Assembly (NCBI GenBank): GCA_963729605.1
Contig: CAVSNY010000005.1
Coordinates: 87,318-151,317, forward strand
Source: an uncultured Gammaproteobacteria bacterium
Lineage (GTDB): Bacteria; Pseudomonadota; Gammaproteobacteria; DRLM01
Reading direction: 5' to 3'
DNA: 64,000 nucleotides
A program made the translations under genes and the position numbers. The first letter of the stretch is position 1. Every line of letters begins with the position of its first letter. The notes under the pieces are model-generated. The model did no database searches, had not been told where the DNA came from, and saw nothing but the letters and a program-made list of their open reading frames with translations. Positions 3,212-64,000 of this stretch are shown here, piece by piece.

Positions 3212-3350
3212 TTCGCTGCCAGGGACGTATTGGCTTAAGCTCTCAGCGTAGTAAATGTGACGTTGAAGTGTATCCCCGAATCCATTCTGGTTTTCCAGCA
3301 GCGTCGGATCTTCGAAAGAATGAGCACACGCAGAGGAGAGTTCATTGAGT

Positions 3351-4553
3351 TCACGCAGCGCGAGTATGTTGTGAAGTTGGTGTGGTTGTCTTATTGGAAT
3401 TTAGCAGTCGCGTTAGCGCATTCTCATAGGCGAGAAAACATTCTTCTTCGTCAAAATGTTTCTCCAACATACGGCGAGCATTGCTTGTCAGACGATGACA
3501 GGTATCAGAGTTACTTAGTAACTTATGAATAGCATTCATAAGACCTTCGTTGTCGCCATAAGTAACCAACAAGCCGGTTTGATCGTGCTTGACGACTTCG
3601 CCAGTACCTCCGACATCGGTCGCAATGACGGGGACACGAGCCGCCATTGCCTCCAATACAACGTGCGGCAGTCCTTCATAGCTAGAATTGAGAATAAAAA
3701 GGTCAGAAGTCTCCAGCAGAGCACGCACCTTTGACTTGGATATCTGCCCCAGAAAGATAACTCGGTCGGCAATCCCATAACTCAGAGCCTGCTGTTGAAG
3801 CTTGGCCTGCTCGGGGCCCTCACCCGCAATCACCAATCGTGTATTGGGAAGATTGTGTAAAGCTTCTATAAGTCGATCCACGCCTTTCCATGGCACTAGA
3901 CGGCAAACAGTAGTGATTGTTTTGCCATGGTACGCGGGAAGAGTGAGTTCATCTGCCGGCTGATCGAGTTGGGTTGAATTGTAGATGATCTGAAGCGCCC
4001 TGTTATTCGTATTCCAGCCGCTGACAATTTTGGCCAGGTAATGACTGGGGGTGATGATGAGGTAAGCGCGAGCAAGGGAAGTGTCACGGAGTTTATCGAG
4101 CAGGCGAAATCGCAATGATTTCGATAAATGCTGATAATCATCAATGGTGCCAGAATACCATTTGCGGACGCGAGCGATTTCCCAAGCACGGTCACCTACT
4201 ACTTTGTGCAACTCTGGCTTCCGCAATAGCGTCGCTGCTATACGTGTTTCAAGATCAAGGCCATTAGCAAATACAATATTTGCAGATTTTCCTAGCTTGT
4301 AGATAGCAGAGATGGTGGTCACCAACCGCTTAAGCCGAGACCCACGACGGAGAATGCGATGGACTTTAAAAGGATAGCAGGTGTCATCATGATCGATGAT
4401 GTCACTCCAGCAGACAACTTGTACCGTATGCCCTCGTTGCGTTAGCCAATGAGAAATGCGTGGCACAAAGTTGGCCGGGCCACCTATATCGGGCGGAAAA
4501 ATACCGGATAAAATAAGAATGTTCAATCGTGATGTTTTCACATATCTATACAT
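3351..4553 (-). CDS. glycosyltransferase family 4
   Basis: Contains SSYEGLPHVVLEAMAARVPVIATDVGGTGEVVKHDQTGLL with the N-terminal GT-B fold. Low GC. Confidence 0.85.
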   Translation of the reverse strand: MYRYVKTSRLNILILSGIFPPDIGGPANFVPRISHWLTQRGHTVQVVCWSDIIDHDDTCYPFKVHRILRRGSRLKRLVTTISAIYKLGKSANIVFANGLDLETRIAATLLRKPELHKVVGDRAWEIARVRKWYSGTIDDYQHLSKSLRFRLLDKLRDTSLARAYLIITPSHYLAKIVSGWNTNNRALQIIYNSTQLDQPADELTLPAYHGKTITTVCRLVPWKGVDRLIEALHNLPNTRLVIAGEGPEQAKLQQQALSYGIADRVIFLGQISKSKVRALLETSDLFILNSSYEGLPHVVLEAMAARVPVIATDVGGTGEVVKHDQTGLLVTYGDNEGLMNAIHKLLSNSDTCHRLTSNARRMLEKHFDEEECFLAYENALTRLLNSNKTTTPTSQHTRAA

Positions 4554-4555
4554 AG

Positions 4556-5510
4556 TTAGTTGGACATAGTCGTATCGGCGCGTTTTCTCTTAATGGATGA
4601 AAATATTACTGCGAACAGGATGCTCATTAACAAGCCCGCAGCAAACCCCATCGCAACAATCATTTTTCGATCCGGTTTACTTTTCGTCTCAGGCACCACC
4701 GCCCGATCGATTATGTTGAATGCATATTGATCCCGCGCGTTGGCGAGCATGATGTTTTTTGTTTGAGCCTCGATCAGTCGATAGATTGATTGCTGCATTT
4801 CCAACACGCTAGTCTTAGCTAATTGATCCTTGAGATAGGCAAGACTCTTCTCAGCCTCTGTAATCGCGGCCTGTTGCTCATGCCAGTTCAACCGCTCCAC
4901 CATGAGGTTGGCCCAGAGTGCCGCTTGCTGGGGATCCTTCCACTCGATAGCCAGAGTGATCAGTCCAGTCTTTTTGTCCTGTGTGATGGTACGGATGTTG
5001 TTATCAAAGATTTGATAGGCTTTCCGCAATGTCGGTGTATTTTTGGGATCCTCTACTAGCCATGTTTTATTCTGCGGATCCCATATGTCACTAAACAACA
5101 CTGGTAACAACTTCTCGTCCTGGATAAAGGCATCGGTAAATGCTCGCGACTTCAAAACTGCAATAACCCTGTCCACAGAATTACCACCCGAACCGATGTT
5201 AATGCCCGCTAATGAGGCGATTCCGCCCAACTCCCCTGCGAGAGCGGACAACCGGCCACCTTCTTCAGGAGAGTACTGGTGCCAAAGTAACCTCAGCACG
5301 ATAAATAGGGGGCATCCACCAGGCAATTGCCGCCGACGCGGCCGTCGTAACTAATGTTACTGCTAGAATTAGCCACTTGAACGAGACCAACACGCGCCAC
5401 AAATCCAACAAGTTGACCTCATCCTCCGCAACTGCCTCCTGCGGTTGAAGGTAGTACACCACCTGAGAGGGTTCAGCGCTCTTTGTTGGGCCTTGCTCGT
5501 TCATTTGCAT
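4556..5510 (-). pseudogene. wzz: Wzz-like polysaccharide chain-length determinant (PCP-1), split by an apparent frameshift near 5262-5275
   Basis: The N-terminal ORF 5265..5510 ends ...WWMPPIYRAEVTLAPVLS*. The +1-frame ORF 4556..5326 continues ...SPEEGGRLSALAGELGGIASLAGINIGSGG... and ends with the TM segment MGFAAGLLMSILFAVIF plus KRKR. Together they make a normal ~320-aa Wzz with N- and C-terminal TM helices. A single indel in gtactctcctgaag joins them. Confidence 0.55.
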
Positions 5511-5600
5511 ATCCAGGGTATATCTTGTCTATAACTCATAGATAATTGCATTGTAGTTCTACATCAAATCGAAGCATCGTGGACTCGAGTTTTTGCGCAA

Positions 5601-6003
5601 TCACTTCCCTATCCACAGTTGCCTCCTGTGCGCGAGAATGCGGTTGCGATAAGGCAGGAAATCCGCATGGTCGAAGACATGTCTGCGAATCAATTCGCCA
5701 TACTGCGTATCACTGCCGAGGATTCTTTTACCATACTTTAATACTTGTCCAAGCAGGGGCTCGCCGACGGCACGGATGTCCACCAAGTCGACCGGACGGC
5801 CGGTTTCCCCCGCCAATTCGGTAATCAACTGTATTTTTTCTTCCGTCGTAAGACGACGGCCCGCATCTACCGCAAGATCAAGATCGCTGTCCGCGCGTCC
5901 TTTACCTGCCGCCAATGAGCCGAACAAGATCGCCAGGCGTATTTGGGGATACGCGCTTAAGACGGCTAGCAGAGTTTGGTTTAGTTCGGTGTCGGTGGTC
6001 ATG
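5601..6003 (-). CDS. MNT-type (pol-beta superfamily) nucleotidyltransferase, solo, no HepT/HEPN partner
   Basis: Contains LFGSLAAGKGRADSDLDLAV, the GS-x9-13-DxD minimal nucleotidyltransferase motif. The likely start is MTTDTELNQ. No cognate HEPN gene on either side. Confidence 0.7.
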
Positions 6004-6093
6004 TCGTAGTAATGAATCTCGCCAAGGCGCTTCGCCCCAGGCATTGCTATGTTCCACTTCCCTGCCTCTCTCCCGAGAGGGGAAAGAACAGCA

Positions 6094-8589
6094 CTAGAGT
6101 ACACCCACGGCATTCCAGGCCGCGATGGCCAAGCCGAATTGATAGACGATCTGGCTCACGCTGGTCCATAAAGTGAGCGGACGCAAGCGTTCCACATCCA
6201 AGGGCACCACGATGGTATCGCCGGGTTTTATGTGCACTGAACTGCGCTGAAACCACTTGCTGGACTTACTCGCTATCACCGCGCCGTTGGCGCGCACCAC
6301 ATAAATGCGGTCGTCGTCGGCCTTTTTGGTCAGGCCGCCGCTGGAATTGATGTATTCATCCCGTTTAAGCCCGGCGCGGTACAGATGCGAAGTGGGATGA
6401 AACACTTCGCCAATTACCGTGACCTCTTGCGTGAAAGGCGGAACCACCAAGGTGTCACCTTCTTTTAAGACCACATCGGCTTCTGGTTTGCCCGCGACTA
6501 CGGCGGGCAGATCGATCACCAAACGGCCGGCGGCCTTGACCCGTTCCAGTTGGCTGGACAAGTCTTTCATGATTTGCAGTTCTTGTAGTTGATCGGCCTT
6601 GGTCTCCACCTGCATCTGTTGCAGGCTGAGGCTCGCCAAATCCTCCTGCAAGCGTTGCTGCAAGGTGTCCAACTGCTCCTGTTCACGCCGGCGCAGTTCT
6701 TCGCGCATGAATACCGCGCCGTCGGCGTAGGCGTAATCGGTGAGCCCGCCGGCGCGGGCGATCACGCTGCTGAGGGTTTCGCCGCGGCGAATCGGATAAG
6801 TGCCGGGAAAACGCACCTCTCCGCTGAGTTTTATTTGTCCTTGCGCCGCCCACTGCGGCACTTCCTTCACATTGAGATGATCGTGCGGATGCAGCGCCAC
6901 GTCCGCGCCGGGCTTGCCGGCCAGAGCATCACCCAAATTGATCTTTTGCAGTTGCACCTCGCGGTATTCGCCGTTGACCACGCCATAACGGGTCAACTCG
7001 GCCTCCAGGGAGTAGGCCGCCTCACCCAGTTGTCCGCCCGCCCGCAGCAAATCGCTGACGCGCATATCGGCTTCCAGCGGATATGTGCCGGGAAAACGCA
7101 CATTGCCATCTACCGTCACTACCGGTGACGGCTGTTCCAAACTCGCTTGTTGGGTAAGCTGGTCCACTAGTTCCTCGATCACCTCGCCCCGGGCTTGGGT
7201 GGCGCCGAACACCAACACTTCATCGCGCGGGGCCAACCGCACGTCGGCGGACGAGCCCGGCTGATCCAAGGCTTTGCGCAAACTGGCGGAGAACACCAGG
7301 ATGCGCCGATCCGGCTTCAGCTCGCGCTTGATCACCAGGTAATCCAAGTCGGGCTTGGGCATCAATTCGTCCGGCGAGGCGATCAAATTACTCAAGCGCA
7401 TGCCTTCCCGCCATTGATACCCGCCGGGGCGCTGCACGTGGCCGGAGAGCAAGACGACGCCTTCCATATTTTCCAATATGGAATGGACTCGTAAGACATC
7501 GCCATTTTGTACCGGCGTGGCGAGCACGGCCGGCGCGCTTAAATTCACATCCAGCAAGGTCCGTTCGCGCTGATTGTTGATCCGCTCCAATTGAGCGCCG
7601 GTCGGATACGCCGTGGAGAGCAGGCCGCCGCTGAAGGCGAGCGCCTCCCCGAGGGTCTTTTCGTGTTTCATTTCGTAAATCGCCGGACGCTTCACCTCAC
7701 CCGCTACCCCGACCGTGGCGCCGATGGGCGGGACGAAGATGACGTCGCCCGGTTGCAGGCGGGCGTCGGCGCGGGTATCGCCGCGCAACAGGAGATCGTA
7801 AAGATCCAGGCGGGTGATTATTTCGCCGTTGCGTTTGAGTTGTATGTCGCGCAGCGACCCGATGGGTTTGACGCCGCCGCTCACGAGCAAGGCATTGGTC
7901 ATGGTGGACAGGCCGCTCACCGTGTAGGAGCCGGGCTGTTGCACGTCACCCAGCACGAAGACGCGGATGGAGCGCAGCGGGCCCAGGCTGATGTTCGCCC
8001 GCACGCCGATCAATTGCTGCTCCACCCGCTGCATGAGGTTGTCTTTGAGTTCGGGGAAACGCAGTCCCGCCACCGGCACCGGCCCAATGCCGGGGAAATT
8101 CAAGGTGCCGTCGCGACCCACCGGCAGGGTGTATTCAGCGTTGTCCTTGCCGAATAATTGCACTTGCACCATGTCGCCGGGACCGACGATGTATTCGGCG
8201 GGCACCGGAATGTCGGTGGCCGGGGCAAAGGTGGTGGGGGAACCGGCGAAGAGATCGTAGCCGAATTGTTTGAGGCTCTGGCTACTCTTTTGAGTTTTTT
8301 GTTTCTCGCTGAGCGAGGACTCATCCGCCGTTTTGCTTGCCTCCTCCATGGGAGAGGTCGGCTGCGTCGTGCGCGGTTTGGTTAATTCGGGAAATGCCGG
8401 CGCGGCTTGGGTCCGGCCCGCGCCCTCCCGTTGGTTGAGCAGCTCCTGGGCCTTGGCCTGCTCCTCCGGGGACAACTGCTGGAATAGCTGGCGCTGTTCG
8501 GGGGTGAGCTCCACCGCCTGCACGGCCCATGCGAACCCGCAGGTCAGCACGACTCCCAATACGCCTTGAAAGACTTTCCTAGACTTCAA
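6094..8589 (-). CDS. large outer-membrane polysaccharide export protein (Wza/OPX family with multiple SLBB domains), signal peptide
   Basis: Signal peptide MKSRKVFQGVLGVVLTCGFAWAVQA. The Poly_export motif YIVGPGDMVQVQLFGKDNAEYTLPVGRDGTLNFPGIGPVPVAGL is followed by several repeated SLBB-like GDxLxVP units (GDVIFVPP, GDTLVVPP, GDTIVVP). Length 831 aa. Confidence 0.8.
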   Translation of the reverse strand: MKSRKVFQGVLGVVLTCGFAWAVQAVELTPEQRQLFQQLSPEEQAKAQELLNQREGAGRTQAAPAFPELTKPRTTQPTSPMEEASKTADESSLSEKQKTQKSSQSLKQFGYDLFAGSPTTFAPATDIPVPAEYIVGPGDMVQVQLFGKDNAEYTLPVGRDGTLNFPGIGPVPVAGLRFPELKDNLMQRVEQQLIGVRANISLGPLRSIRVFVLGDVQQPGSYTVSGLSTMTNALLVSGGVKPIGSLRDIQLKRNGEIITRLDLYDLLLRGDTRADARLQPGDVIFVPPIGATVGVAGEVKRPAIYEMKHEKTLGEALAFSGGLLSTAYPTGAQLERINNQRERTLLDVNLSAPAVLATPVQNGDVLRVHSILENMEGVVLLSGHVQRPGGYQWREGMRLSNLIASPDELMPKPDLDYLVIKRELKPDRRILVFSASLRKALDQPGSSADVRLAPRDEVLVFGATQARGEVIEELVDQLTQQASLEQPSPVVTVDGNVRFPGTYPLEADMRVSDLLRAGGQLGEAAYSLEAELTRYGVVNGEYREVQLQKINLGDALAGKPGADVALHPHDHLNVKEVPQWAAQGQIKLSGEVRFPGTYPIRRGETLSSVIARAGGLTDYAYADGAVFMREELRRREQEQLDTLQQRLQEDLASLSLQQMQVETKADQLQELQIMKDLSSQLERVKAAGRLVIDLPAVVAGKPEADVVLKEGDTLVVPPFTQEVTVIGEVFHPTSHLYRAGLKRDEYINSSGGLTKKADDDRIYVVRANGAVIASKSSKWFQRSSVHIKPGDTIVVPLDVERLRPLTLWTSVSQIVYQFGLAIAAWNAVGVL

Positions 8590-9754
8590 GCTGCGGAACC
8601 CCTCTGTTCATAGCCATCGTAGTCATGCCGTCAGCATCTCCTTCGCCAGTAAGGACCGAAGAAATCTACCACAATACAAGCAGATAAAATACCCGGCACG
8701 GTGATTTTTCCGATATGGCGAGTGTTGCATGGCTTCTTCCATCTGCGGGAGAAGGACATGAATGGCGCATCGGAAAATAATGCGGGCTGAATAAACGATC
8801 AGCGGAATGGACCCCCGCCGGTTCAACAAAGAGCAAACCACCCCGGCCCTGCGGGCCACCCCTCCTTGTAACAAGGAGGGGAGAACATTACAAACAACGA
8901 CCACGCACGGGGTTAGTTCGCGGTGCAGATCAAACTCCGATACCCCCCTCCCCTCCGAAGAGAGAAATATTTCGACGTCCCCGCGCGACGCTCGCACGAT
9001 CAAGCTCGACAACTCCCCTCCTCTCCGAGGAGGGGTGGCCCGCAGGGCCGGGGTGGTGCGCATCAAAATCATCCGCCCTCGAATCACTCAATACCGCCAT
9101 TGCCACTGCACATCCACGTGATTTTCCGATATGGCGGGTGAGAGAAATATTTCGACGTCCCCGCGCGACGCCTGCACGATCAAACTCCGATGACTCCCCT
9201 CCTCTCCGAGGAGGGGTGGCCCGCAGGGCCGGGGTGGTGCGCATCAAAAATCATTCGCCCTCGAATCATTCAATACCGCCATTGCTACTGCACATCCAGG
9301 TGATTTTTCCGATAGGGCAGGTGTTACATGGCCTCTTCATCTGCGGGAAAAGAGCATGAATGGCGCATCGGAAAATAATGCGGGCTGAATTAACGATCAG
9401 CGGAATGGACCCTCGCCGGTTCAACAAAGAGCAAACCACCCCGGCCCTGCGGGCCACCCCTCCTTGTAACAAGGAGGGGAGAACATTACAAACGGCGATC
9501 ACGCACGGGAGTTAATTCGCGGCGCGGATCAACTCCGATAACTCCCTGAGAATCGAAACCGGCCGCCGCGTTGTAATAGCGTTAATTCCGCGGTGCAGAT
9601 CAAACTCCGACAACTCCCCTCCGAAGAGAGGAATATTTCGACGTCACCGTGCGGCACTTGCGCGATCAAACTCCGATAACTCCCCTCCTCCCCGAGGAGG
9701 GGTGGCCCGTAGGGCCGGGGTGGTGCGCATCAAAATCATTCGCCCTCGAATCAT

Positions 9755-11213
<1,459 letters not shown>

Positions 11214-11533
11214 ACGATGGAGAACAATCCCTGGTCCTTTTGGTGAATGAGGAAACCGCTGAATTTATGTCCCGTTCCTCGTATTGGAAAATGGAGGAAA
11301 CGGGCGAAAGGCGTCAAACACGCTCTTGCCCCCGCAACCCCGCCCGGCAAGAGGGCAAAACGAAGGGGTTGGTTTAATCTTAAATTCCCCGTGACAAGCC
11401 GCGCGGACAAGGCGATAGGGGATTCTCCCCTTGAGCAGGCGCGGAGATCCGTTCCCCGTGCGCGGTCAGACCTATTTAATCCAATCCTCCGGCATTTTTC
11501 CACGAATCCCGCTTCAAGGAAACCCGCGCGGAC

Positions 11534-21217: not shown

Positions 21218-22234
21218 TTACAACGTCCGGCCCAGCGAAACGGCGATGGCCCGCAACTCGCCCATCAGCTTGGTCAGCTCCGGCGGGCTCAAGGCCTGAT
21301 CGGCGTCGCACCAGGCCTCGGACGGGCAGGGATGCATCTCGATCAGCAGGCCGTCGGCGCCGGCCGCCACCGCGGCGCGCGCCAGCGCCGGCACCATCCA
21401 GGCCTTGCCGCCGGCGTGGCTGGGATCGACGATCACCGGGAAATGGGTCTCGCGCTTCAACACCGGAATGGCGGTGACGTCGAGCATGTTGCGGTAATAG
21501 GTCTCGAAACTGCGCACGCCGCGTTCGCAGAAGATGATGTTGTGATTGCCGCCGGCGACGATGTACTCCGCCGCCATCAGCCATTCGGAAATGGTCGCCG
21601 ACATGCCGCGTTTCAGAATCACCGGCTTCTGCACCTTGCCCACTTCCTTGAGCAGATCGAAGTTCTGCATATTGCGGGTGCCGATTTGAATCACGTCCAC
21701 GTCGTGTTCGAGAAAGGTATCGAGCATGCGCACGTCCATCAATTCGGTGACGATAGGCAAGTTGTGCTTATCCGCCGCCTTGCGGAACATGTCCAAGCCT
21801 TCCACACCCACGCCTTGAAAGGTGTAGGGACTGGTGCGCGGTTTGAACGCGCCGCCGCGCATCAGCCGGCAACCCGCCGCCGCCACCGAGGCCGCCGCCG
21901 AATCCATCTGCGGCTGGGTCTCCACCGAACACGGCCCGCCGATCACCTGGATCTGATTGCCGCCCAGCTTGATGCCGCGGATGTCGATCACCGAATCTTC
22001 CGGATGGGATATCCGCGAGACGATCTTGTACGGCTTCATCACCCGCACCACGTTCTCGACGCCGGGCAACACCTCCAGCGCCTCGATATCGATCTGGCGC
22101 TCGTCGCCGATGGCGCCGACTATGGTGCGCTCGATGCCCTTCGAGACATGGGAGCCCATGCCCATGGCCTTCAACTTGTCCGACACCGCGTCGATCTGCG
22201 CATCGGTGCTGCCCGCATTCATAATGATGATCAT
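21218..22234 (-). CDS. aroF: 3-deoxy-7-phosphoheptulonate (DAHP) synthase, type I-beta with N-terminal ferredoxin-like regulatory domain
   Basis: Near colinear match, from memory, to Thermotoga-type DAH7PS: KPYKIVSR...IGGPCSVE...RGGAFKPRTSPYTFQG...IQIGTRNMQNF...VILKRG...IVDPSHAGG...IEMHPCPSEAWCDADQAL. Confidence 0.85.
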   Translation of the reverse strand: MIIIMNAGSTDAQIDAVSDKLKAMGMGSHVSKGIERTIVGAIGDERQIDIEALEVLPGVENVVRVMKPYKIVSRISHPEDSVIDIRGIKLGGNQIQVIGGPCSVETQPQMDSAAASVAAAGCRLMRGGAFKPRTSPYTFQGVGVEGLDMFRKAADKHNLPIVTELMDVRMLDTFLEHDVDVIQIGTRNMQNFDLLKEVGKVQKPVILKRGMSATISEWLMAAEYIVAGGNHNIIFCERGVRSFETYYRNMLDVTAIPVLKRETHFPVIVDPSHAGGKAWMVPALARAAVAAGADGLLIEMHPCPSEAWCDADQALSPPELTKLMGELRAIAVSLGRTL

Positions 22235-39308: not shown

Positions 39309-41063
39309 TCATCCTTCCAATTGCACGGCGAAGACTTCTTCGATGGATGTCTTGCCGGTGCGGGCGAGGGTCAACGCGTTGTCACCCAGTTTGCTCATGC
39401 CTGACGCCACGGCGGCTTGTTGAATTTGCTGAGTGGAGCCGCCGTCGTTGATGAGCTGGGCGATCTCCGGTGTGACCACCAGTAGCTCGCACACCGTCAT
39501 GCGGCCGCGATAGCCGGTTTGATTGCAGGCCTCGCAGCCTTTGCCGCGGTAAAACACCTCCTCCGGCTGCAAGTTGAGACTATGACGGATATAGGGTTCC
39601 ACCTCTTCCGGGGCGAGGCACTTCGGACAATTGACCCGCACCAGGCGTTGCGCCATCACGCCCAACAGGGTGGAGCTCAATAAATAGGATTCGAGGCCCA
39701 TGTCCACCAGACGTGTGACGGTGCTGGCCGCGTCGTTGGTGTGCAGAGTGCTGAACACCAAGTGGCCGGTGAGCGCGGCCTTGTTGGCGATGTGGGCGGT
39801 CTCCTCGTCGCGGATCTCGCCGACCATGATCACGTCGGGGTCGTGACGCAAAAACTGCCGCAAGGCTTGGGCGAAGGTATAACCCTTCACCACCGAGATC
39901 TGCACCTGCTCCACGCCGTCCATGTCGTATTCCACCGGGTCTTCCACGGTGAGCAAATGCACGTTGCGTTTCTTCACCTCGTTGAGAATGGCGTACAAGG
40001 TAGTGGATTTGCCGGAACCGGTGGGACCGGTGACCAGGAATAAACCATGGGGGCGGACCATCAGCCGCTTGATCAAGGTGTATTCCCGTTCCTGCAATCC
40101 CAGGGACTCCAGCGGTCGCACGCCGGCGTCCTTGTCGAGGATACGGATCACCACGCTTTCACCTTTGACGGTCGGCACCACCGAGATACGCAGGTCGATG
40201 TTCTTGGTGCCCCAAGCCAGGCGGGCGTGGCCGTCCTGTGGCAGGCGGCGTTCCGAGATGTCCATCTGGCCGGTGATCTTGATGCGGCTGACCAGGGCCG
40301 GCAGCAGCGACCGGCTCATGGTGCGGGAATAATGCAGGCGGCCGTCGATGCGGTAATACACGTTCACCCGGTCTTTCTCGGGGCGGATATTGATGTCCGA
40401 GGCGCCCTTGGTCACGCCTTGCAGCAAGATGGCGTTGACCAGCCGCACGATGGGTTTGCGCTGGGCCTCCTGCTCCATGACGTACAGTGAATCGGAATTG
40501 TCCGGGGAACTGCCCACCGGATCGAGCTGGAGGTCCTCGATGGCCTCGCTCTCCTCCAATTTGCTGTAAAACTTCTGCAGCAAGGCGCGGATGTCCGCGC
40601 CGGCGGCCATCACCGCCTCGATGTTGGCATTGGTATTGAAGCGCAGGGCGTTGACCACGGTCTGGTCGAGGGGATTCTCCATGGCGACGATCAGCTTGCC
40701 GTTCATCTCGCCCAAGGGCACCACGTTATATTGAATGGCCAAATCGGCGGGCAGACGCGAGAGCATTTGCGAAGGAAGATCGAAACCCTGCAAATTGAGG
40801 AAAGGAATACCCAACTTCTTGGCGAGGGCCACGTTCACCTCTTCCTGGGAGACCAATTGCATGTCCAGCAGGATTTGCCCCAGATGTTTTCCCTTGCTGT
40901 GCTTTTGTCGGATCAGGGCTTCGTGGAGCTGCTCGCGGCTGACCAGCTTTTCCGCCACGAAGATCTCGCCGAGCCGCAGATCCGGCGAGCGGTGGGTCTC
41001 GTCCAGCACCTCTTTTAATTCGTGGACCGAATTGACGATGTGGTTTTTGCCTGATCCCGACAT
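39309..41063 (-). CDS. GspE/PilB-family secretion ATPase with N-terminal MshEN-type (c-di-GMP-binding) tandem motifs, orphan
   Basis: Walker A GPTGSGKSTT, Asp box, Walker B VIMVGEIRDEETA, His box LVFSTLHTNDAAS, tetracysteine CPKC...CEAC. The N-terminus has two 24-aa motifs, RLGEIFVAEKLVSREQLHEALIRQ and HLGQILLDMQLVSQEEVNVALAKK, matching the MshEN consensus RLGxx(L/I/V)(L/I/V)xxG(L/I/V)(L/I/V)xxxxLxxxLxxQ apart from the Gly position. A GSPII_E_N domain follows. Confidence 0.85.
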   Translation of the reverse strand: MSGSGKNHIVNSVHELKEVLDETHRSPDLRLGEIFVAEKLVSREQLHEALIRQKHSKGKHLGQILLDMQLVSQEEVNVALAKKLGIPFLNLQGFDLPSQMLSRLPADLAIQYNVVPLGEMNGKLIVAMENPLDQTVVNALRFNTNANIEAVMAAGADIRALLQKFYSKLEESEAIEDLQLDPVGSSPDNSDSLYVMEQEAQRKPIVRLVNAILLQGVTKGASDINIRPEKDRVNVYYRIDGRLHYSRTMSRSLLPALVSRIKITGQMDISERRLPQDGHARLAWGTKNIDLRISVVPTVKGESVVIRILDKDAGVRPLESLGLQEREYTLIKRLMVRPHGLFLVTGPTGSGKSTTLYAILNEVKKRNVHLLTVEDPVEYDMDGVEQVQISVVKGYTFAQALRQFLRHDPDVIMVGEIRDEETAHIANKAALTGHLVFSTLHTNDAASTVTRLVDMGLESYLLSSTLLGVMAQRLVRVNCPKCLAPEEVEPYIRHSLNLQPEEVFYRGKGCEACNQTGYRGRMTVCELLVVTPEIAQLINDGGSTQQIQQAAVASGMSKLGDNALTLARTGKTSIEEVFAVQLEG

Positions 41064-41464
41064 TTTTCATTTTCCTAAATTAACGGAGAGGGACAACCCG
41101 CCGGCCGGCGGCGCTTCGATCCTGCGGGTCCTCATCCGAGGACCGGCTCTTGAACAACATCAATACCGTCTGGGTTATCGTCACGTAAGGCGGGTGGGAT
41201 GATTCGCCGCCGGCGGCAAGAGTCTGCCGCCTTCAACTCATACGTAGTTAAATTGCCATCCGATCTGCCAATTATTTGACCAGTCCGCCATTTGTCAATG
41301 ACGTAACCCCGTTAAATTATCAGGCCTTGGCGGTTTTACGGCCAGGGCGGTCGCCGTGAACCCCCCATTTTTAGCGGCAAATCGACGGCCAAGACAAGCG
41401 CGACCAGATTGGCACACATCTGGCATAATCTTCAGCGCAAGGCGTTTTACTCGGAGATAAAAAA

Positions 41465-42421
41465 ATGACGGCGCCACATATCATGGACGCAGATTTTCAT
41501 CTTGGACAGACCACCCCTGAATCGGTACGGTCGGCTTTCGGACTGATGTCCGATTTATCCGCCGCGGACAGCCAGAGCCTGGAGGCCGTGGTCCGCATCA
41601 ACACCCATTTGCAAACGACCCTGGACATCCAGGCGCTGATAAATATCTTCGCCGATGAAATGCAGCGCTTTGTCCCCTTCGACGCCCTCCGTTACAGTTC
41701 TTCCGCCCACGATTTAGTGGTGGAGCTGGGAAAAGGCGCGCGCAACATCTGTTCATATCGTTTGATCGCCGGTACCGATCTGCTCGGGGAACTGCGATTC
41801 AGCCGCCGCCGTAAATTCACCGTCCTCGAGACCCAAACCATCGAACACCTGATGTGCGCCCTGGTTTACCCGCTGCGCAACGCCCTCACCTATCTTTCCG
41901 CGTTGCGGGCCGCCCACAAGGATCCCCTGACCGGGGTGAACAATCGCAGCGCCTTGGACACGAGCCTGGCCCGTGAAGTGGACATGGCGCGCCGCCACCG
42001 CACCTCGCTGTCGTTGATCATGATGGATATCGACCGTTTCAAATCCATCAACGACAATTATGGCCACACCGCCGGCGACGAGGTCATCAAGGCCTTTACC
42101 GCCGTGGTGGGCACCGCGATCCGCAAGAGCGACATGTTATTCCGCTTCGGCGGCGAGGAATTCGTGGTCTTGTTGAGCAACACCGCCCGCGCCGGGGCCG
42201 TCTTGCTCGCGGAACGCATCCGCCAGGCGGTGGAGCAAAGTCTGGTGAGCATCGGGCATCAGGTCGTACCCATCACCGTCAGCCTCGGCGTTTCCACTCT
42301 CGGTCCGACGGACACGCAGCAGTCCCTGTTCGAAAAAGCGGACAAAGCGCTTTACAACGCCAAGAGCGAAGGCCGCAACTGTGTGCGTTATCTCACGCAT
42401 AACGCCGCCGAAATCGCCTGA
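41465..42421 (+). CDS. diguanylate cyclase (N-terminal GAF-like sensor plus GGDEF domain, GGEEF active site)
   Basis: DPLTGVNNRSALD...MMDIDRFKSINDNYGHTAGDEVI...RFGGEEFVVLL is the canonical GGDEF domain with an intact RxxD I-site region. Confidence 0.85.
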   Translation: MTAPHIMDADFHLGQTTPESVRSAFGLMSDLSAADSQSLEAVVRINTHLQTTLDIQALINIFADEMQRFVPFDALRYSSSAHDLVVELGKGARNICSYRLIAGTDLLGELRFSRRRKFTVLETQTIEHLMCALVYPLRNALTYLSALRAAHKDPLTGVNNRSALDTSLAREVDMARRHRTSLSLIMMDIDRFKSINDNYGHTAGDEVIKAFTAVVGTAIRKSDMLFRFGGEEFVVLLSNTARAGAVLLAERIRQAVEQSLVSIGHQVVPITVSLGVSTLGPTDTQQSLFEKADKALYNAKSEGRNCVRYLTHNAAEIA

Positions 42422-42483
42422 CCCGCGCCCATTCTTTTCATTTGCATCAGCGCGTTTCTCGGCTGATAATGCCGTTGTTTTTA

Positions 42484-42600
42484 ATCTCAAAATTCCCTGC
42501 GGCTTGTGCGGGACCGGGTGATGGGAATTCTCAAAGGGGGGCATCGCGATGCCTCCTTTAAGCAAGCGCGGCGAGGGGGGCATCCCCGCCCGCGGCTAGA
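42484..42600. repeat. ~120-bp dispersed repeat, family 2, copy A (aguA leader region)
   Basis: ATCTCAAAATTCCCTGCGGCTTGTGCGGGACCGGGTGATGG...GCGCGGCGAGGGGGGCATCCCCGCCCGCGGCTAGA aligns with 46908-47030 at the 5' ~45 nt and 3' ~40 nt. Contains the palindrome GCATCGCGATGC. Confidence 0.5.
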
Positions 42601-42637
42601 CCAATCTAATTTTTATCAGTTTGGCGGTAATACACTC

Positions 42638-43681
42638 ATGAGCAGTACGATATGTGGTTTCCTCCCCCCCGAATGGGCGCCGCAGAGCGGCGTCATCCTC
42701 ACCTGGCCCCACCCGCACAGCGATTGGCAGGATATCCTGCCCGCGGTCGAGCCGGTGTACGTGCAACTGGCCGGCCACATCGCGGCGCGTGAAAAGGTCC
42801 TGATCAATTGCTGGGACGCCGGCCACGCCGATCATGTCGCGCGATTATTGAAAAAAGCCGGCACCTATTTTCCCAATGTGATGCTGCACATCCTGCCGAC
42901 CAACGACACCTGGGTCCGCGATTACGGTCCCATCACCATCTTCCGGGAAGGCAAACCGGTGTTGCTGGATTTCATCTTCAACGGCTGGGGCAATAAATTT
43001 CCCGCGCCCCTGGATAACGAAGCGACTCAACGCATCCATCGCAACGAGATATTCGGCGCCGCCCAGCTGCGCCCGGTCAACTTGGTCTTGGAAGGCGGCA
43101 GCATCGAAGTGGACGGCCACGGCACCCTGCTCACCACCAGCCAATGCCTGCTCACCCCCACCCGCAACCCCCAACTCGATCGCGGCCAGGTCGAGGCGAC
43201 CCTGCGCGGTCTGCTGGGCACCACCCGCGTGTTGTGGCTGGAGCACGGCCATTTGGCGGGCGACGACACCGACAGCCACATCGACACCCTGGCCCGTTTC
43301 TGCGATCCGCACACCATCGCCTACGTGGCCTGCGACGACCCGGCCGACGAACACTACGACGACCTCAAACAGATGGAGGCGGAACTGCAAGCCTTCCGCG
43401 ACTATCAAGGCCAGCCCTACCGCCTGGTGCCCCTGCCCTGGCCGGCCGCCAAACGGGACGAGGACGGCCGGCGTCTCGCCGCCAGCTACGCCAACTTCCT
43501 CATCATCAACGGTGCCGTGCTGGTCCCGACCTACGACGATGCCGCCGACGCCGAGGCCTTGCGCCGGCTGCAAGCCTGCTTTCCGGACCGCGAGGTGATC
43601 GGCGTCGACTGTTTGCCGCTCATCAAACAAAACGGCAGTCTGCATTGCGTGACCATGCAATTGCCGGCCGGCGTCATGTAG
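42638..43681 (+). CDS. aguA: agmatine deiminase
   Basis: MSSTICGFLPPEWAPQSGVILTWPH...WVRDYGPI...EGGSIEVDGHGTLLTT...GSLHCVTMQLP. Catalytic Cys in GSLHCVT. ATG at 42638. Confidence 0.85.
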   Translation: MSSTICGFLPPEWAPQSGVILTWPHPHSDWQDILPAVEPVYVQLAGHIAAREKVLINCWDAGHADHVARLLKKAGTYFPNVMLHILPTNDTWVRDYGPITIFREGKPVLLDFIFNGWGNKFPAPLDNEATQRIHRNEIFGAAQLRPVNLVLEGGSIEVDGHGTLLTTSQCLLTPTRNPQLDRGQVEATLRGLLGTTRVLWLEHGHLAGDDTDSHIDTLARFCDPHTIAYVACDDPADEHYDDLKQMEAELQAFRDYQGQPYRLVPLPWPAAKRDEDGRRLAASYANFLIINGAVLVPTYDDAADAEALRRLQACFPDREVIGVDCLPLIKQNGSLHCVTMQLPAGVM

Positions 43682-43718
43682 CCGCATAATCCACGGCACT
43701 GCCACCAGGGGGATTCCC

Positions 43719-44612
43719 ATGAAACACCGCATGCTTACCGTCGGCCTGATCCAACACGCCTGCGGCGAAGACCGCGACGCCAACCTCGCCGCCACCGTCG
43801 CCGGCGTGCGCGAGGCGGCGCGGCAAGGCGCTCGACTGGTGCTGCTGCAAGAGCTGCACACCGGCCCCTATTTCTGCCAGCACGAGGAGACCGACTATTT
43901 CGATCGGGCGGAAACCCTGCCCGGCCCCAGCACCGACCTGCTGGGCGCGGTGGCGCGCGAACTTCAGGTAGTGATCGTCGCCTCGCTGTTCGAGCGCCGC
44001 GCGCCGGGCCTGTATCACAACACCGCCGTGGTGCTGGATCGGGACGGCGCCATCGCCGGCAAATACCGCAAGATGCACATCCCGGACGACCCCGGCTATT
44101 ACGAAAAATTCTATTTCACCCCTGGCGACCTCGGTTTCGAACCCATCGACACCAGCGTCGGGCGCCTCGGCGTGCTGGTGTGCTGGGATCAGTGGTTCCC
44201 GGAAGCGGCGCGGCTGATGGCCCTGGCCGGCGCCGACCTGCTGCTCTACCCCACCGCCATCGGCTGGAATCCGCCCGACGACGCCGCGGAAAAGGCCCGC
44301 CAGCGCGAGGCGTGGATCACCATTCAACGGGCCCATGCCGTGGCCAATGGTTTACCGGTGCTGGTCTGCAACCGAGTGGGTTACGAGCCAGATCCCTCGG
44401 CTCAAACCGAAGGCATCCAATTCTGGGGCAATAGCTTCGTCACGGGGCCGCAGGGCGAATTACTCGCCGCTGCCGGCGAGCAGGCGGCCGTGCTGGTCAC
44501 CCAAGTGGATATGGCCCGCAGCGAAGCGGTGCGGCGCATCTGGCCCTATCTGCGCGATCGGCGTATCGACGCCTATCAGGCCCTCACCCTGCGTTATCGC
44601 GATCCGCGCTGA
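43719..44612 (+). CDS. aguB: N-carbamoylputrescine amidase (nitrilase superfamily)
   Basis: CN-hydrolase E-K-C triad context: LVLLQEL (Glu), GKYRKMHIPDD (Lys), GVLVCWDQWFPE (Cys). Adjacent to aguA. Confidence 0.85.
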   Translation: MKHRMLTVGLIQHACGEDRDANLAATVAGVREAARQGARLVLLQELHTGPYFCQHEETDYFDRAETLPGPSTDLLGAVARELQVVIVASLFERRAPGLYHNTAVVLDRDGAIAGKYRKMHIPDDPGYYEKFYFTPGDLGFEPIDTSVGRLGVLVCWDQWFPEAARLMALAGADLLLYPTAIGWNPPDDAAEKARQREAWITIQRAHAVANGLPVLVCNRVGYEPDPSAQTEGIQFWGNSFVTGPQGELLAAAGEQAAVLVTQVDMARSEAVRRIWPYLRDRRIDAYQALTLRYRDPR

Positions 44613-44763
44613 AGACGCGCGTTTGAAAATCCGGCACGCGGCAAAACCGCGATCAACTCGGGTTCCGCTGCGAGGATCTCGCCGACTTTCTCCTGCGCCC
44701 CTTTTAATCCATGCGGCGTTATACTTAACACATCTTCCACTGGCCGCCCGATAGGAACACGTC

Positions 44764-45885
44764 ATGATCGTCATCTTGGAATCCAATATCGATAAAAACG
44801 GCGAGCGTTACACCAGCTTGATGAACCGTCTCTCCCAGCTGCCCAATGTCCAGGTCCGGGTGCATGAAGAAGTGGGCACCCAACACGTGTTGACCGAGCT
44901 GTATCTGATCGGCAATACCTCTGCCTTGCCGATGGATGAAATCCAGTCTTTACCCGGCGTGGAACAAGTCGTGCGGATCTCGGGCGCTTACCGGGTATTG
45001 GGCCGCCACAAGAACGACAGCCGCTCCAGCCACTTCGAATACAACGGCGTCAAATTCAGTCAGGACACTCTCAATATCTTCGCCGGGTTGTGCGCGGTCG
45101 ATACGCCCGAACACGTGGAAATCATGATGCGCGCCCTGCGGGAACACGGACTGGTCTGCACGCGCATGGGGGCCTACAAGCCCCGCACCAATCCCTATTC
45201 GTTCCAAGGCCACGGCAAAAACTGCATGCCCTATGTCTTCGAGCTGGCGGGTAAATACGGCATCAAGGTGATCGCCATGGAAGTCACCTCCGAACAACAT
45301 ATCCACGAGATCAACGAAGCGTTGGAACAGACCGGCCGGCCCACCGGGATCATGCTGCAAATCGGTACCCGCAACACCCAGAACTTCGAGTTGTTGAAGG
45401 CCGTAGGGCGCCAGCAGGAATTTCCGGTGTTGATCAAACGGGGTTTCGGCATCACCCTGGAAGAGTCCCTCAACGCCGCCGAATATCTCGCCAGCGAAGG
45501 CAACCGCAAAGTGGTGTTCTGCCTGCGCGGCATGAAGACCAATATGGGCGACCCCCATCGCAACCTGGTGGATTTCGCCCACGTCCCGGTGGTCAAACGG
45601 CTCACCCGCATGCCGGTATGCATCGACCCCTCCCACTCGGTGGGGACCCGCGATCGCTCGTGCGACGACATCCTCGATCTCGTCCATGTCACCGCCCAGG
45701 GCGTCATCGCCGGCGCCAACATGGTCCTGGTCGATTTCCACCCCGCGCCGGAGAAGGCGTTGGTCGACGGCCCGCAAGCCCTGCGCCTGCCGGAACTGCC
45801 CTATTTCCTGGAAGACATCCAACTGGCGCGCCAGGCCTATGAGGCACGCACCGCCCTGGTCAAGCGCTACGAAACCACGGCCTGA
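44764..45885 (+). CDS. second, divergent type I-beta DAHP synthase paralog with extended N-terminal regulatory domain
   Basis: Contains GLCAVDTPE, RMGAYKPRTNPYSFQGHG, LQIGTRNTQNFELL, VLIKRGFG, CIDPSHSVG and VDFHPAPEKALVDGPQAL. Same family as 21218-22234 but divergent, with a 373-aa length and a unique insert KTNMGDPHRNLVD. Confidence 0.75.
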   Translation: MIVILESNIDKNGERYTSLMNRLSQLPNVQVRVHEEVGTQHVLTELYLIGNTSALPMDEIQSLPGVEQVVRISGAYRVLGRHKNDSRSSHFEYNGVKFSQDTLNIFAGLCAVDTPEHVEIMMRALREHGLVCTRMGAYKPRTNPYSFQGHGKNCMPYVFELAGKYGIKVIAMEVTSEQHIHEINEALEQTGRPTGIMLQIGTRNTQNFELLKAVGRQQEFPVLIKRGFGITLEESLNAAEYLASEGNRKVVFCLRGMKTNMGDPHRNLVDFAHVPVVKRLTRMPVCIDPSHSVGTRDRSCDDILDLVHVTAQGVIAGANMVLVDFHPAPEKALVDGPQALRLPELPYFLEDIQLARQAYEARTALVKRYETTA

Positions 45886-46165
45886 GCAACCACCACGGAC
45901 AGGCATTCAGACCCTCAGATGAACTATATTTACCGTCACTACTTGGATAGACAGAGACTTAGAAAGAAACTGGCCCGGCCTCAATCTCCACAACCGGGTC
46001 AAACTGGGGGTTAACCGCCACATCCACGATTACAACTAACCCTACGGCGTATTGCGATGACCCAGCGGCCGTGCTCGCAGCGGCCCCACGCCACCCTTCA
46101 ATCCGACGACTCGATTTCAAACATGCGGCTACGCAGCACAAGAGGCGGACGACCCGGAATCACCA

Positions 46166-46848
46166 TGAACGAGCAAGACCCATCCCTGGCGTGGCTCACG
46201 CAATTCCCGCCGCTCGAGGCGGTGCGCGACGAGACCTGTCTCAAACTGCTGGCCACCGCTCAAGCCATCCGCATCAAAAAAGGCGGCCGGGTCTTTGAAG
46301 ACGGCGCCCCCTGCGACCGCTATTTATTAATTCTGAAAGGGTCGATCCGGGTGCAGAAAATCACGCCGGGCGGCCATGAAATCGTGCTCCATCATGTGGG
46401 CCCCGGCCAGTCTTGCGAATTGGCCACCGCGTGCATCATCGGTCAACACGCGTATCCCGCCCAGGCCGTCGCCGAAACCGCGGTGCAAGCCATCTCTATT
46501 TCCCGCCCCCATTTCGATGAGCTGATCGCGCACTGTCCGCCCTTTCGCGACATGGTCTATCAACATGTCGAACGCGGCATCAGCGAATTGATCTCATTAG
46601 TCGAGGAAGTGGCCTTCGGCCACATGGACGCGCGCCTGGCCCACTGCTTGTTGCGGCAAGCCAATGGCGGACAGAACGTCACCATGACCCATCACGGTTT
46701 AGCCGCCGAACTGGGCTCGGCGCGCGAGGTGGTGAGCAGGCTGCTTAAAAAATTCGAGCGTCACGGCTGGGTCCGTCTGCATCGGGGCTACATCGACCTG
46801 CTCGACAAGGAGGCGCTGCGGCGGCTGGCCGATAAAACCTTCGAGTGA
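46166..46848 (+). CDS. Crp/Fnr-family transcriptional regulator (cNMP-binding domain plus C-terminal HTH)
   Basis: cNMP-binding beta-roll (IKKGGRVFEDGAPCDRYLLILKGSIRV...GPGQSCELA) and C-terminal HTH (MTHHGLAAELGSAREVVSRLLKKFERHGWV). There is no N-terminal Cys cluster, so it is not a classic FNR. Confidence 0.8.
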
Positions 46849-55338: not shown

Positions 55339-56175
55339 TTAATCCAGGTGCATCTCCGCGAAACCGCGCGCCTTGACGATTTGATCGAGTTCTTTCAACA
55401 CCGACAACAATTCTTCCATGCGTCTCAGCGGCCAGGCATTGGGGCCGTCGCTGAGCGCTTTCGCGGGATCGGGATGGGTCTCCATGAACACGCCGGCCAC
55501 CCCCGCCGCCACCGCCGCGCGCGCCAGCACCGGCACGAATTCGCGCTGGCCGCCCGACTTGCCGCCGGCGCCGCCGGGCAGTTGCACCGAATGGGTGGCG
55601 TCGAACACCACCGGGCAACCGGTGTCGCGCATCACCGCCAAGGAACGCATGTCGGAGACCAGATTATTGTAGCCGAAGGACACGCCGCGCTCGCAGACCA
55701 TGATCTGCCGATTACCGACCGCCTTGGCCTTTTCCGCGACGTGCTTCATATCCCACGGCGCGAGGAACTGGCCTTTTTTGATGTTGACCGGTTTGCCCTG
55801 GCGCGCGACGTTTTGAATGAAATTAGTCTGGCGGCACAGAAACGCCGGCGTCTGCAGCACGTCCACTACGGACGCGACTTCGGCCAGCGGCGTGTCTTCA
55901 TGCACATCGGTGAGCACCGGCACCTGCAATTGCTGCTTCACCTTCTCCAGTATCTTCAAGCCGCCTTCGAGACCGGGGCCGCGGAAGCTCGCCACCGAGG
56001 TGCGGTTGGCCTTGTCGAAGGACGATTTGTAGATGAACGGGATACCCAATTTGCCGGTAAGCTCTTTGAGCATGCCCGCGGTTTCGAGCGCGAGGCCTTC
56101 GCTCTCGATGACGCAGGGACCGGCGATCAGGAACAGCGGGCGGTCCAGCCCGGCTTCGAAATCACAGAGTTTCAT
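55339..56175 (-). CDS. kdsA: 3-deoxy-8-phosphooctulonate (KDO8P) synthase
   Basis: [25 protein letters not shown]...[10 protein letters not shown]...[16 protein letters not shown] at 56175, preceded by GGGAGA. Confidence 0.9.
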
Positions 56176-56180
56176 GGCGA

Positions 56181-57878
<1,698 letters not shown>

Positions 57879-62541: not shown

Positions 62542-63711
<1,170 letters not shown>

Positions 63712-63825
63712 CGCAGGCGGTCAGACCGGCTACTCTTATGAGGGCTAATGGTTTTCGAGTCGCGTCCGAAAACTCTGTAAGACCCCTGCTGGTGGCCTGT
63801 AATCCTACATATCGCAAAAGGGTGG

Positions 63826-64000
63826 CTATGGAACAGGACGATATCTCAAAAGAACGGCGGCTGTTCTCCCGTATTCCTTTTAATGGCAGCGTCACCCTCA
63901 TCAGCGACGAAGGCCGTTGGGTCTGCAACCTGGTGGACATTTCGCTCAAAGGCGTCTTGATCGACCAACCCGAGGGGTGGGCCGGCAAAATAGGGCAGTC
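63826..64000 (+). CDS. PilZ-domain protein, N-terminal fragment (runs off window end)
   Basis: My own translation: MEQDDISKERRLFSRIPFNGSVTLISDEGRWVCNLVDISLKGVLIDQPEGW. It has the PilZ c-di-GMP-binding motifs RRxxxR (RRLFSR) and DxSxxG (DISLKG). Confidence 0.6.

Follow-up and report, generated by a model that had tools for sequence, protein, structure and literature searches.

In Vibrio cholerae, the extension ATPase of the MSHA pilus, MshE, is the prototype of the MshEN receptors of cyclic di-GMP (c-di-GMP; structure 5HTL), and this nucleotide is proposed to license pilus extension in surface attachment (PMC5013675). Several PilB/PilF ATPases bearing an MshEN domain likewise bind c-di-GMP through the N-domain (PMC11656802, PMC11731258), and in Escherichia coli a dedicated cyclase, DgcJ, is coupled to a single MshEN-domain effector, NfrB (PMC8669469). 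Genes of diguanylate cyclases, e.g. gcbA, can be regulated by FleQ, a sigma54 enhancer-binding protein which itself binds c-di-GMP (PMC6120874, PMC8125075). We analyzed a 64-kb stretch of DNA (the window) from an uncultured gammaproteobacterium (contig CAVSNY010000005.1), in which the gene of a hexameric secretion ATPase of the PilB/MshE class is transcribed divergently from a diguanylate cyclase gene. MshEN ATPases, local cyclase-effector pairs and their overall logic are already known; what is new is their combination in one stable module, a conserved cyclase-effector pair that is probably wired to FleQ and sigma54.

Relatives of the ATPase were collected by context look-ups and by a scan of species-representative genomes, and their loci were taken with 10-kb flanks. 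The family proved to be large (relatives of 60% to 99% identity), and the lineage of the paired loci is an uncultured gammaproteobacterial one, known from metagenome-assembled genomes. The co-occurrence of the two genes in other genomes, suggested as a check in an earlier reading of the window (the initial annotation), was strongly positive: a full-length ortholog of the cyclase lies divergently beside the ATPase gene in about 25 genomes or contigs, with ATPase identities of 47-91%. At 21 loci other than that of the window, the divergent cyclase ortholog, including its sensor domain, is located 230-580 bp upstream of the ATPase gene; in the window itself, where divergence from a shared region of about 400 bp had been reported, the distance is 401 bp. 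The pair is also present at loci L086 and L088, and in the latter it is intact, with both flanks entirely different.

At one locus (L022) the cyclase gene is displaced 8.3 kb from the ATPase gene by an inserted cassette (1665-10001), which encodes the RuBisCO large subunit, CbbQ, a CbbO-like VWA protein, a class II aldolase and a LysR regulator. The gap, which might have held machinery genes, is thus taken up by this cassette, and its gene content points to an autotrophic way of life in this member of the lineage.

For 21 cyclase clusters, the longest contig was exactly the same size as that of an ATPase cluster. Neighbour-joining placed the paired ATPases in a single clade, within which three unpaired members (L018-L020) are nested; its sister group consists of orphan ATPases from Ectothiorhodospiraceae and Halothiobacillaceae. 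The identities of the ATPases and cyclases to their window copies are correlated (r = 0.77). The pairing is not a matter of chance; the two genes constitute a conserved, vertically inherited unit. A literature search on orphan PilB-like ATPases paired with cyclases retrieved no description of this clade or of the pairing.

At two loci of the sister group (L030, 11963-15863, and L031; Halothiobacillaceae, Guyparkeria), a cyclopropane-fatty-acid-synthase-like gene comes after the ATPase gene, and a large protein containing a GGDEF domain is encoded 2-3 kb from the ATPase, so a looser link to c-di-GMP enzymes may predate the tight pairing. L030 belongs to Guyparkeria hydrothermalis, which among the closest relatives is the one named strain in culture.

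The window ATPase had been credited with all of the boxes of type II secretion system (T2SS) and type IV pilus ATPases, and each of them could be located by residue position: Walker A (346-354), the Asp box (373-378), Walker B (408-419) and the His box (432-443), as well as a tetracysteine CPKC...CEAC zinc motif (479-513). The core (residues 199-578) matches Pfam PF00437 T2SSE with 416.6 bits (cutoff 24.9). By its motifs the protein is catalytically intact, and by profile it belongs to the PilB/GspE superfamily. Its closest solved relatives are Thermus PilF, Geobacter PilB and Myxococcus PilB (413-454 bits over the full length), and the catalytic boxes and zinc motif are common to it and the type IVa PilB/PilF proteins (Geobacter PilB, 5TSG; Myxococcus PilB, 3JC8; Thermus PilF, 6F8L; Clostridium PilB2). 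An exact-protein look-up found no match on record.

PilB and GspE are the top NCBIfam models, but the scores are below the equivalog cutoffs of both (533.8 bits against 675.65 for PilB TIGR02538, and 529.9 bits against 630.25 for GspE TIGR02533). Unlike type IVa PilB/PilF, the window ATPase falls into a separate, cyclase-paired clade, and neither pilC/pilD nor any other pilus gene neighbours expected of PilB were found at its locus or at 22 paired loci. There is no gspD or gspF nearby, so the gsp operon context of GspE is lacking as well. Unlike MshE, the protein is encoded outside an msh operon: the cluster with MshG, pilin and secretin genes is absent, and the gene is flanked by hpnCDE on one side and by the cyclase gene and aguAB on the other. 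The window ATPase thus departs from PilB and GspE in both profile score and context, and from MshE in local context.

The family affinities could mean that the gene is nothing other than the relocated, ordinary pilus or T2SS motor of the genome (its PilB, MshE or GspE), with the cyclase gene as a passenger of core synteny. The best NCBIfam models and the best PDB matches (PilF and PilB) agree with such an origin, as do the stand-alone ATPase genes of the same class that are common in related genomes and the location of the pair in a housekeeping region with long-range synteny (hpnCDE, aguAB and a gene for 3-deoxy-D-arabino-heptulosonate 7-phosphate (DAHP) synthase). A relocated motor is harder to reconcile with scores below both equivalog cutoffs, with a pair that outlasts the replacement of both of its flanks (L088) and the loss of the hpn or agu genes, and with two conserved elements in an otherwise unalignable intergenic region (described below). 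At locus L013, moreover, a second ATPase of the PilB/GspE class makes the paired one a paralog. We regard relocation as distinctly improbable.

The likeness to MshE extends to the architecture, in which an MshEN N-domain precedes a PilB/GspE-type core. The N-terminal 180 residues of the window ATPase align end to end with the MshEN domains of Geobacter PilB and Thermus PilF, and the alignment to V. cholerae MshE (5HTL) is weaker (E = 1e-8, vs 8e-24 for Geobacter PilB). Residues 30-82 match NCBIfam NF053729 ('c-di-GMP-binding domain, MshE-related') with 50.0 bits (cutoff 38), and residues 84-170 match Pfam PF05157 MshEN with 72.5 bits (cutoff 23.1). Since both thresholds are exceeded, the objection foreseen in the initial annotation, an N-terminus falling short of the MshEN profiles, does not apply. 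The match to the MshEN region of NfrB (NF008411, 80.6 bits) covers residues 14-178.

The initial annotation held that both 24-residue motifs of this domain fit the MshEN consensus apart from the Gly position. This is correct for motif I (RLGEIFVAEKLVSREQLHEALIRQ), which is off consensus only at the turn Gly, keeps six of the seven key residues and shares L, G, L, L and Q with MshE, but not for motif II (HLGQILLDMQLVSQEEVNVALAKK), which keeps three of seven (L, G and L being shared with MshE). The four substitutions in motif II are Arg to H60, Gly to Q69, Leu to V76 and Gln to K83, and the inter-motif spacer has 6 residues rather than 5, which makes it one residue longer than in MshE. Two of these deviations fall on ligand-contact positions of V. 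cholerae MshEN, where the Arg stacks on guanine and the Gln forms hydrogen bonds with ribose and phosphate (PMC5013675).

Counting of column conservation in 117 ATPase homologs of at least 60% identity revealed that L31, G32, L46, L50 and G62 are invariant, that Q53 is present in 116 of the 117, and that L61 and L80 are each kept in 111. The substituted positions are no less constant (H60, 112/117; K83, 117/117). Deeper members of the clade have Arg at position 60 with Lys83 retained, and across the clade this position is restricted to His, Arg or Gln; the alternation of His and Arg is as expected of a stacking residue. The first residue of motif I is variable (R, Y, P, H, S or Q).

A different explanation of these data is a degenerate MshEN domain, which would have kept its fold and lost c-di-GMP binding, like domain GSPII-A of Thermus PilF, and would have a structural or docking role only, the cyclase signalling elsewhere (to PilZ proteins or FleQ). 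In GSPII-A, either a Ser at the Arg position of motif II or an Arg at its Gln position is enough to block binding, and reversion is needed, which demonstrates that a consensus-like sequence alone is insufficient (PMC12002112). Because these substitutions occupy the positions of H60 and K83, binding to the window domain is not assured, and the four deviations in motif II, including both polar/stacking contact positions, and the variable first residue of motif I agree with a decayed site.

Decay does not, however, account for the constraint on the backbone-contacting Gly residues (G32 and G62) and the Leu clusters of both motifs (L31, L46 and L50, like the two Gly residues and K83, in 117/117; L61 and L80 in 111/117), which goes beyond that of a purely structural helix bundle, for the three residues to which position 60 is limited, or for a score above the NF053729 threshold. 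It would also leave the conserved pairing with a cyclase otherwise unexplained. In our alignment the c-di-GMP-binding domain GSPII-C of PilF (PMC12002112) has a Pro at the motif II Arg position, so this position tolerates change. We consider a degenerate domain unlikely, although it carries some weight, and the clade-wide conservation of H60 and K83 leads us to read motif II as a clade-specific variant of the site, apparently under selection, and not as decay.

On these sequence comparisons, the product of the neighbouring cyclase is probably received by the MshEN domain, for which binding of c-di-GMP is plausible. A further, improbable idea is that the invariant Lys83 makes the affinity or specificity for the ligand differ from that of canonical MshEN domains. 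If binding does occur, the His60/Lys83 site would be a natural variant for probing which MshEN contacts determine it.

The cyclase (318 amino acids; aa) consists of a sensor domain, a long helix and a GGDEF domain (Pfam PF00990, residues 150-305, 155.6 bits). Its site residues, GGEEF (229-233), an RxxD I-site (RKSD, 220-223) and the guanine-specific N196 and D205, are all recognizable, and the GGEEF, the I-site and the guanine-binding Asn/Asp are invariant in 62 cyclase orthologs. By these motifs it is an active-type diguanylate cyclase with an I-site. The best NCBIfam match, DgcS, was rejected as an assignment (178.7 bits against a cutoff of 400), and the literature search revealed no characterized ortholog.

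The N-terminus had been labelled GAF. Pfam GAF models found no match in the window protein and matched only one of the 62 orthologs (E = 0.045), so the label fails at the level of profiles and holds at that of the fold: a confident AlphaFold2 (AF2) model, with a pLDDT of 83, aligned over its full length in Foldseek with Dcsbis (4zmu), a GAF-GGDEF cyclase, and with PadC (5llw), a PHY-GGDEF protein, which makes a GAF-like fold a reasonable prediction. The pair as a whole resembles NfrB-DgcJ in that a dedicated cyclase accompanies one MshEN-domain effector. NfrB is a glycosyltransferase, unlike the window effector, and DgcJ has other sensor domains; direct contact was shown for NfrB-DgcJ, whereas the window pair is known from sequence, and its two proteins may possibly touch as well.

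Most of the region between the two genes cannot be aligned from one relative to another, and conservation is confined to two short elements. These, a sigma54 promoter and a palindrome resembling a FleQ box, are newly recognized here and go beyond the initial annotation. As a sigma54 promoter we accepted a TGGCAC-N5-TTGCW-type element with -24 GG and -12 GC, at a suitable distance from a gene and conserved in relatives. The predicted promoter TGGCACACATCTGGCA has all of these properties and is the sole sigma54-type match in the window. An element of the form TGGCAY-N5-NNGCW, in the sense of the cyclase gene, is present in 22 of 22 paired loci (0.077 loci in shuffled sequences), and in 21 of them its -12 GC is placed 28-59 nt before the cyclase start codon.

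The palindrome, GTCAA-N4-TTGAC, is found with at most two mismatches in 14 of the 22 loci (0.12 expected) and is recognizable in 21. It is located 85-146 bp upstream of the sigma54 -12 element, but anywhere from 14 to 333 bp from the ATPase start; its spacing is thus fixed to the cyclase promoter and not to the ATPase gene, which is the geometry of an enhancer (upstream activating sequence, UAS) for that promoter. Both elements, with matching spacing, were also observed in hold-out contexts unused in their discovery (L086/L087 and L088). A strong sigma70-like promoter candidate for the ATPase gene, seen in the window only, has its -10 hexamer overlapped by the palindrome. A CRP/FNR-type site (consensus TTGAT-N4-ATCAA) was rejected, because the half-sites of the palindrome (TCAA-N4-TTGA) are everted relative to it. 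A scan of the window with Rfam detected no RNA families.

The palindrome fits the published FleQ consensus GTCaNTAAAtTGAC (PMC6120874, PMC8125075), from which we infer FleQ as the factor that may bind it; its standing as an element comes from its conservation across relatives and its enhancer geometry. FleQ-controlled cyclase genes of Pseudomonas (gcbA and the siaABCD operon) are likewise preceded by a palindrome of the FleQ consensus (PMC8125075, PMC6120874). The window element differs from these cases in that it and a sigma54 promoter are arranged in the classic geometry of an enhancer, in that a divergent ATPase gene shares it, and in that the lineage is not Pseudomonas.

The combination of a sigma54 promoter with a FleQ-box-like enhancer suggests that expression of the cyclase probably depends on an activator of the FleQ/FlrA type. 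In the mechanism that we favour, (i) an enhancer-binding protein of this type, bound at the palindrome, would turn on the sigma54-dependent cyclase gene and tie its expression to the flagellar/sigma54 regulon, (ii) the GAF-like domain of the cyclase would add a second input, (iii) the c-di-GMP produced would occupy the variant MshEN site on the ATPase encoded next to the cyclase, and (iv) the ligand-bound hexamer would act as the assembly motor of a type IV pilus-like filament, the structural genes of which would be located elsewhere in the genome. The outcome would be a switch from the motile to the attached state, analogous to that of MshE and the MSHA pilus in Vibrio, possibly with feedback through binding of c-di-GMP to FleQ. 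Taken as a whole, from the FleQ/sigma54-driven cyclase through the MshEN receptor to a pilus-type output, we consider this mechanism moderately probable.

The pair represents a compact module, stable in evolution, whose control region can be read. Should the mechanism be true, it would provide a clean genomic case of cyclase-effector specificity and a candidate wiring that connects the flagellar regulon with attachment of the pilus type in uncultured bacteria, of which some carry RuBisCO. At least one member of the lineage has flagella genes and one has RuBisCO. The former is L018 (1825-11749), a member of the clade that lacks the adjacent cyclase, where the ATPase gene follows genes for a methyl-accepting chemotaxis protein (MCP) and cheR with a 15-bp gap and is surrounded by flgE, flgD, flgC, flgB, a gene for a YcgR-like PilZN protein, flgN and flgA. 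This flagellar neighbourhood lends independent support to the flagellar connection. The possibility that the MCP gene and cheR belong to a pilus chemosensory operon of the Pil-Chp type was rejected, since their neighbours are flagellar.

Several observations weigh against the favoured mechanism. Members L018-L020 are nested in the paired clade and have no adjacent cyclase (at L020 only about 0.7 kb of upstream sequence is available), and slow change of gene order in a core-genome region could explain part of the conservation. Motif II is without the consensus Arg, the turn Gly, one Leu and the terminal Gln, and a Lys at the Gln position is without tested precedent. The FleQ motif reportedly predicts poorly on the scale of whole genomes (PMC6120874), and no FleQ gene, rpoN gene or enhancer-binding protein (searched for by the GAFTGA signature) was detected in the loci examined. 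No structural gene of a pilus or T2SS was found in the 22 paired loci (approx. 380 kb; T2SSF probe and prepilin-signature scan), and the output machine is inferred entirely.

The absence of structural genes near any member of the clade would also be expected if the ATPase were a filament-independent, c-di-GMP-gated regulator, e.g. of exopolysaccharide, as proposed for Myxococcus PilB (PMC6957770), or an alternative motor acting on another platform. Relatives in non-pilus contexts, among the chemotaxis and flagellar genes of L018 or paired with a PilT-like ATPase (L032 and L047), point in the same direction. All of the motor features, including the zinc tetracysteine, are nevertheless kept as in true assembly ATPases, positive evidence for another target is absent, and the exopolysaccharide cluster of the window is 28 kb away and does not lie beside the pair in the relatives examined, which makes such a role very improbable. 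A related proposal combines it with the predicted control region and receptor: a private line in which the flagellar master regulator would switch on the cyclase and the cyclase would supply a re-tuned His/Lys MshEN receptor on a motor ATPase without a machine of its own, the ATPase serving as a c-di-GMP-gated alternative motor on the platform of another pilus or secretion system or as a filament-independent switch. We give this version a low probability.

The initial annotation reported that pilin, platform (GspF/PilC) and secretin genes are not found nearby. Our searches agreed: no platform, pilin or secretin gene was detected in the 64-kb window by Pfam annotation (covering most open reading frames (ORFs) of at least 150 aa), by tblastn with a T2SSF protein or by a prepilin-signature scan; the T2SSF probe was Pfam-verified, and positive controls for the machinery searches scored. 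The further claim that the ATPase has no known machinery stands locally, while beyond the locus it rests on this local absence. Stand-alone ATPase genes of the PilB/GspE class are common in related genomes, so the local lack of machinery is weak evidence for a machine-less ATPase, just as an 'orphan' placement is a weak pointer to a missing machine.

More distant relatives are solitary or paired with a PilT-like ATPase. The latter arrangement, in which MshEN-type ATPases of 42-45% identity are divergently paired with a PilT-like ATPase (L032, 8604-11722; L047, 1382-4504; L043; L049), is a different recurring two-gene arrangement without a cyclase.

The second ATPase gene of L013 (16823-17714) is placed 9 kb from the paired one, and its product is 42% identical to the window protein. 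Its best NCBIfam model is TfpB (485 bits over the C-terminal half alone), the exact protein is not on record, and its relatives of 65-70% identity (L089 and L090) are encoded alone, away from pilus or T2SS genes. A PilT-like match at this locus, considered as a lead to the machine, was abandoned, as it proved to be this second ATPase, whose relatives are solitary too.

The coordinates of the features are collected in Table 1.

Table 1. Features of the ATPase-cyclase locus and of the remaining window, in window coordinates.
Feature	Coordinates	Strand	Basis or remark
PilB/MshE-class hexameric secretion ATPase gene, 584 aa	39309..41063	-	ORF; Pfam T2SSE + MshEN
ATPase core, residues 199-578, with Walker A, Asp box, Walker B, His box and tetracysteine Zn motif	39330..40469	-	
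MshEN C-terminal subdomain, residues 84-170	40554..40814	-	PF05157, 72.5 bits
MshEN_N putative c-di-GMP site: motif I residues 30-53, 6-residue spacer, motif II residues 60-83	40815..40976	-	
Shared divergent control region, 401 bp	41064..41464	.	
Palindrome GTCAA-N4-TTGAC (FleQ-box-like), putative enhancer (UAS) for the cyclase promoter	41267..41280	.	
Sigma70-like promoter candidate for the ATPase gene, TTGACA-16-AATAAT, 11/12	41271..41298	-	seen in window only
Sigma54 (RpoN) -24/-12 promoter TGGCACACATCTGGCA (predicted)	41410..41425	+	-12 GC 40 nt before cyclase ATG
Diguanylate cyclase gene, 318 aa: GAF-like sensor, long helix, GGDEF domain	41465..42421	+	PF00990
Cyclase N-terminal sensor domain, approx. 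residues 30-150, alpha/beta, GAF-like fold (predicted)	41552..41914	+	AF2 model, Foldseek
Crp-like regulator	46057-46848		
PAS/GAF/GGDEF/EAL protein, 1132 aa	47035-50433		
PilZ ORF running off the window end	63624-64000		PF07238, 30.7 bits

On one side of the ATPase gene, hopanoid genes had been noted, and annotation identified them as hpnC, hpnD and hpnE (HpnE passes TIGR03467). The hpnCDE genes adjoin the ATPase in roughly half of the paired loci and are absent or replaced in the others, and the agmatine genes are likewise only partially conserved; for this reason a functional link to hopanoids was dismissed as lineage synteny. At L003 (11830-14908) and also at L004, hpnD and hpnE are inverted, co-directional with the ATPase gene and 87 bp downstream of it, and hpnC is on the other strand, a local rearrangement which keeps the squalene genes adjacent.

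Downstream of the cyclase gene there are aguA-like and aguB-like genes and a DAHP-synthase paralog. All four genes are on one strand with short gaps (41465-45885), and no terminator-like site was registered between the cyclase and aguA-like genes, so transcription from the sigma54 promoter may extend into a longer operon with genes of polyamine metabolism (agmatine to putrescine). Several relatives have no aguAB here, and their DAHP-synthase gene comes directly after the cyclase gene. At L003 (8301-8582) and L086 (8434-8712), a small ORF of 92-93 aa with no Pfam match is found directly downstream of the cyclase gene; it is not present in the window.

The window contains three paralogs of the DAHP_synth_1 family (21218-22234, 44764-45885 and 55339-56349), one in an aromatic amino-acid cluster, one downstream of the cyclase gene and aguAB, and one KdsA-like. 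The paralog downstream of the cyclase gene shows 70-89% identity across the clade, which is higher than that of the ATPase, and scores below the NCBIfam cutoffs.

The Crp-like regulator, the 1132-aa PAS-GGDEF-EAL protein and the PilZ protein named in the initial annotation are all present in the window. That annotation combined them with the pair into a local c-di-GMP signalling module, of which the cyclase-ATPase pair endures, whereas the other three genes are not conserved when the flanks change (L088). Small PilZ ORFs occur 6-22 kb from the pair in the window, at L085 (4165-4461) and at L086 (2808-3188). The position occupied in the window by the Crp-like and PAS-GGDEF-EAL genes is equivalent to that of genes for a PilS-like sensor kinase (6TM_PilS) and a short REC-HTH_8 response regulator at L001 (2414-4251) and L085 (1152-2986), approx. 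6-8 kb from the pair, which hints at type IVa pili in the lineage.

The housekeeping genes of the window include pyrF, lapB, rpsA, cmk, aroA, tyrA, pheA, serC, gyrA, ubiG and rmuC, and further genes are truD, ispF/D, eno, kdsA, pyrG and dapE. A capsule or exopolysaccharide (EPS) export cluster (397-11503) encodes a methyltransferase, three GT4 glycosyltransferases, a Wzz-like GNVR protein, an 831-aa Wza-like exporter and Wzi. Over the first 6 kb the GC content is only 45-49%, compared with about 60-65% for most of the other window DNA, and this markedly low value suggests that sugar genes were acquired horizontally.

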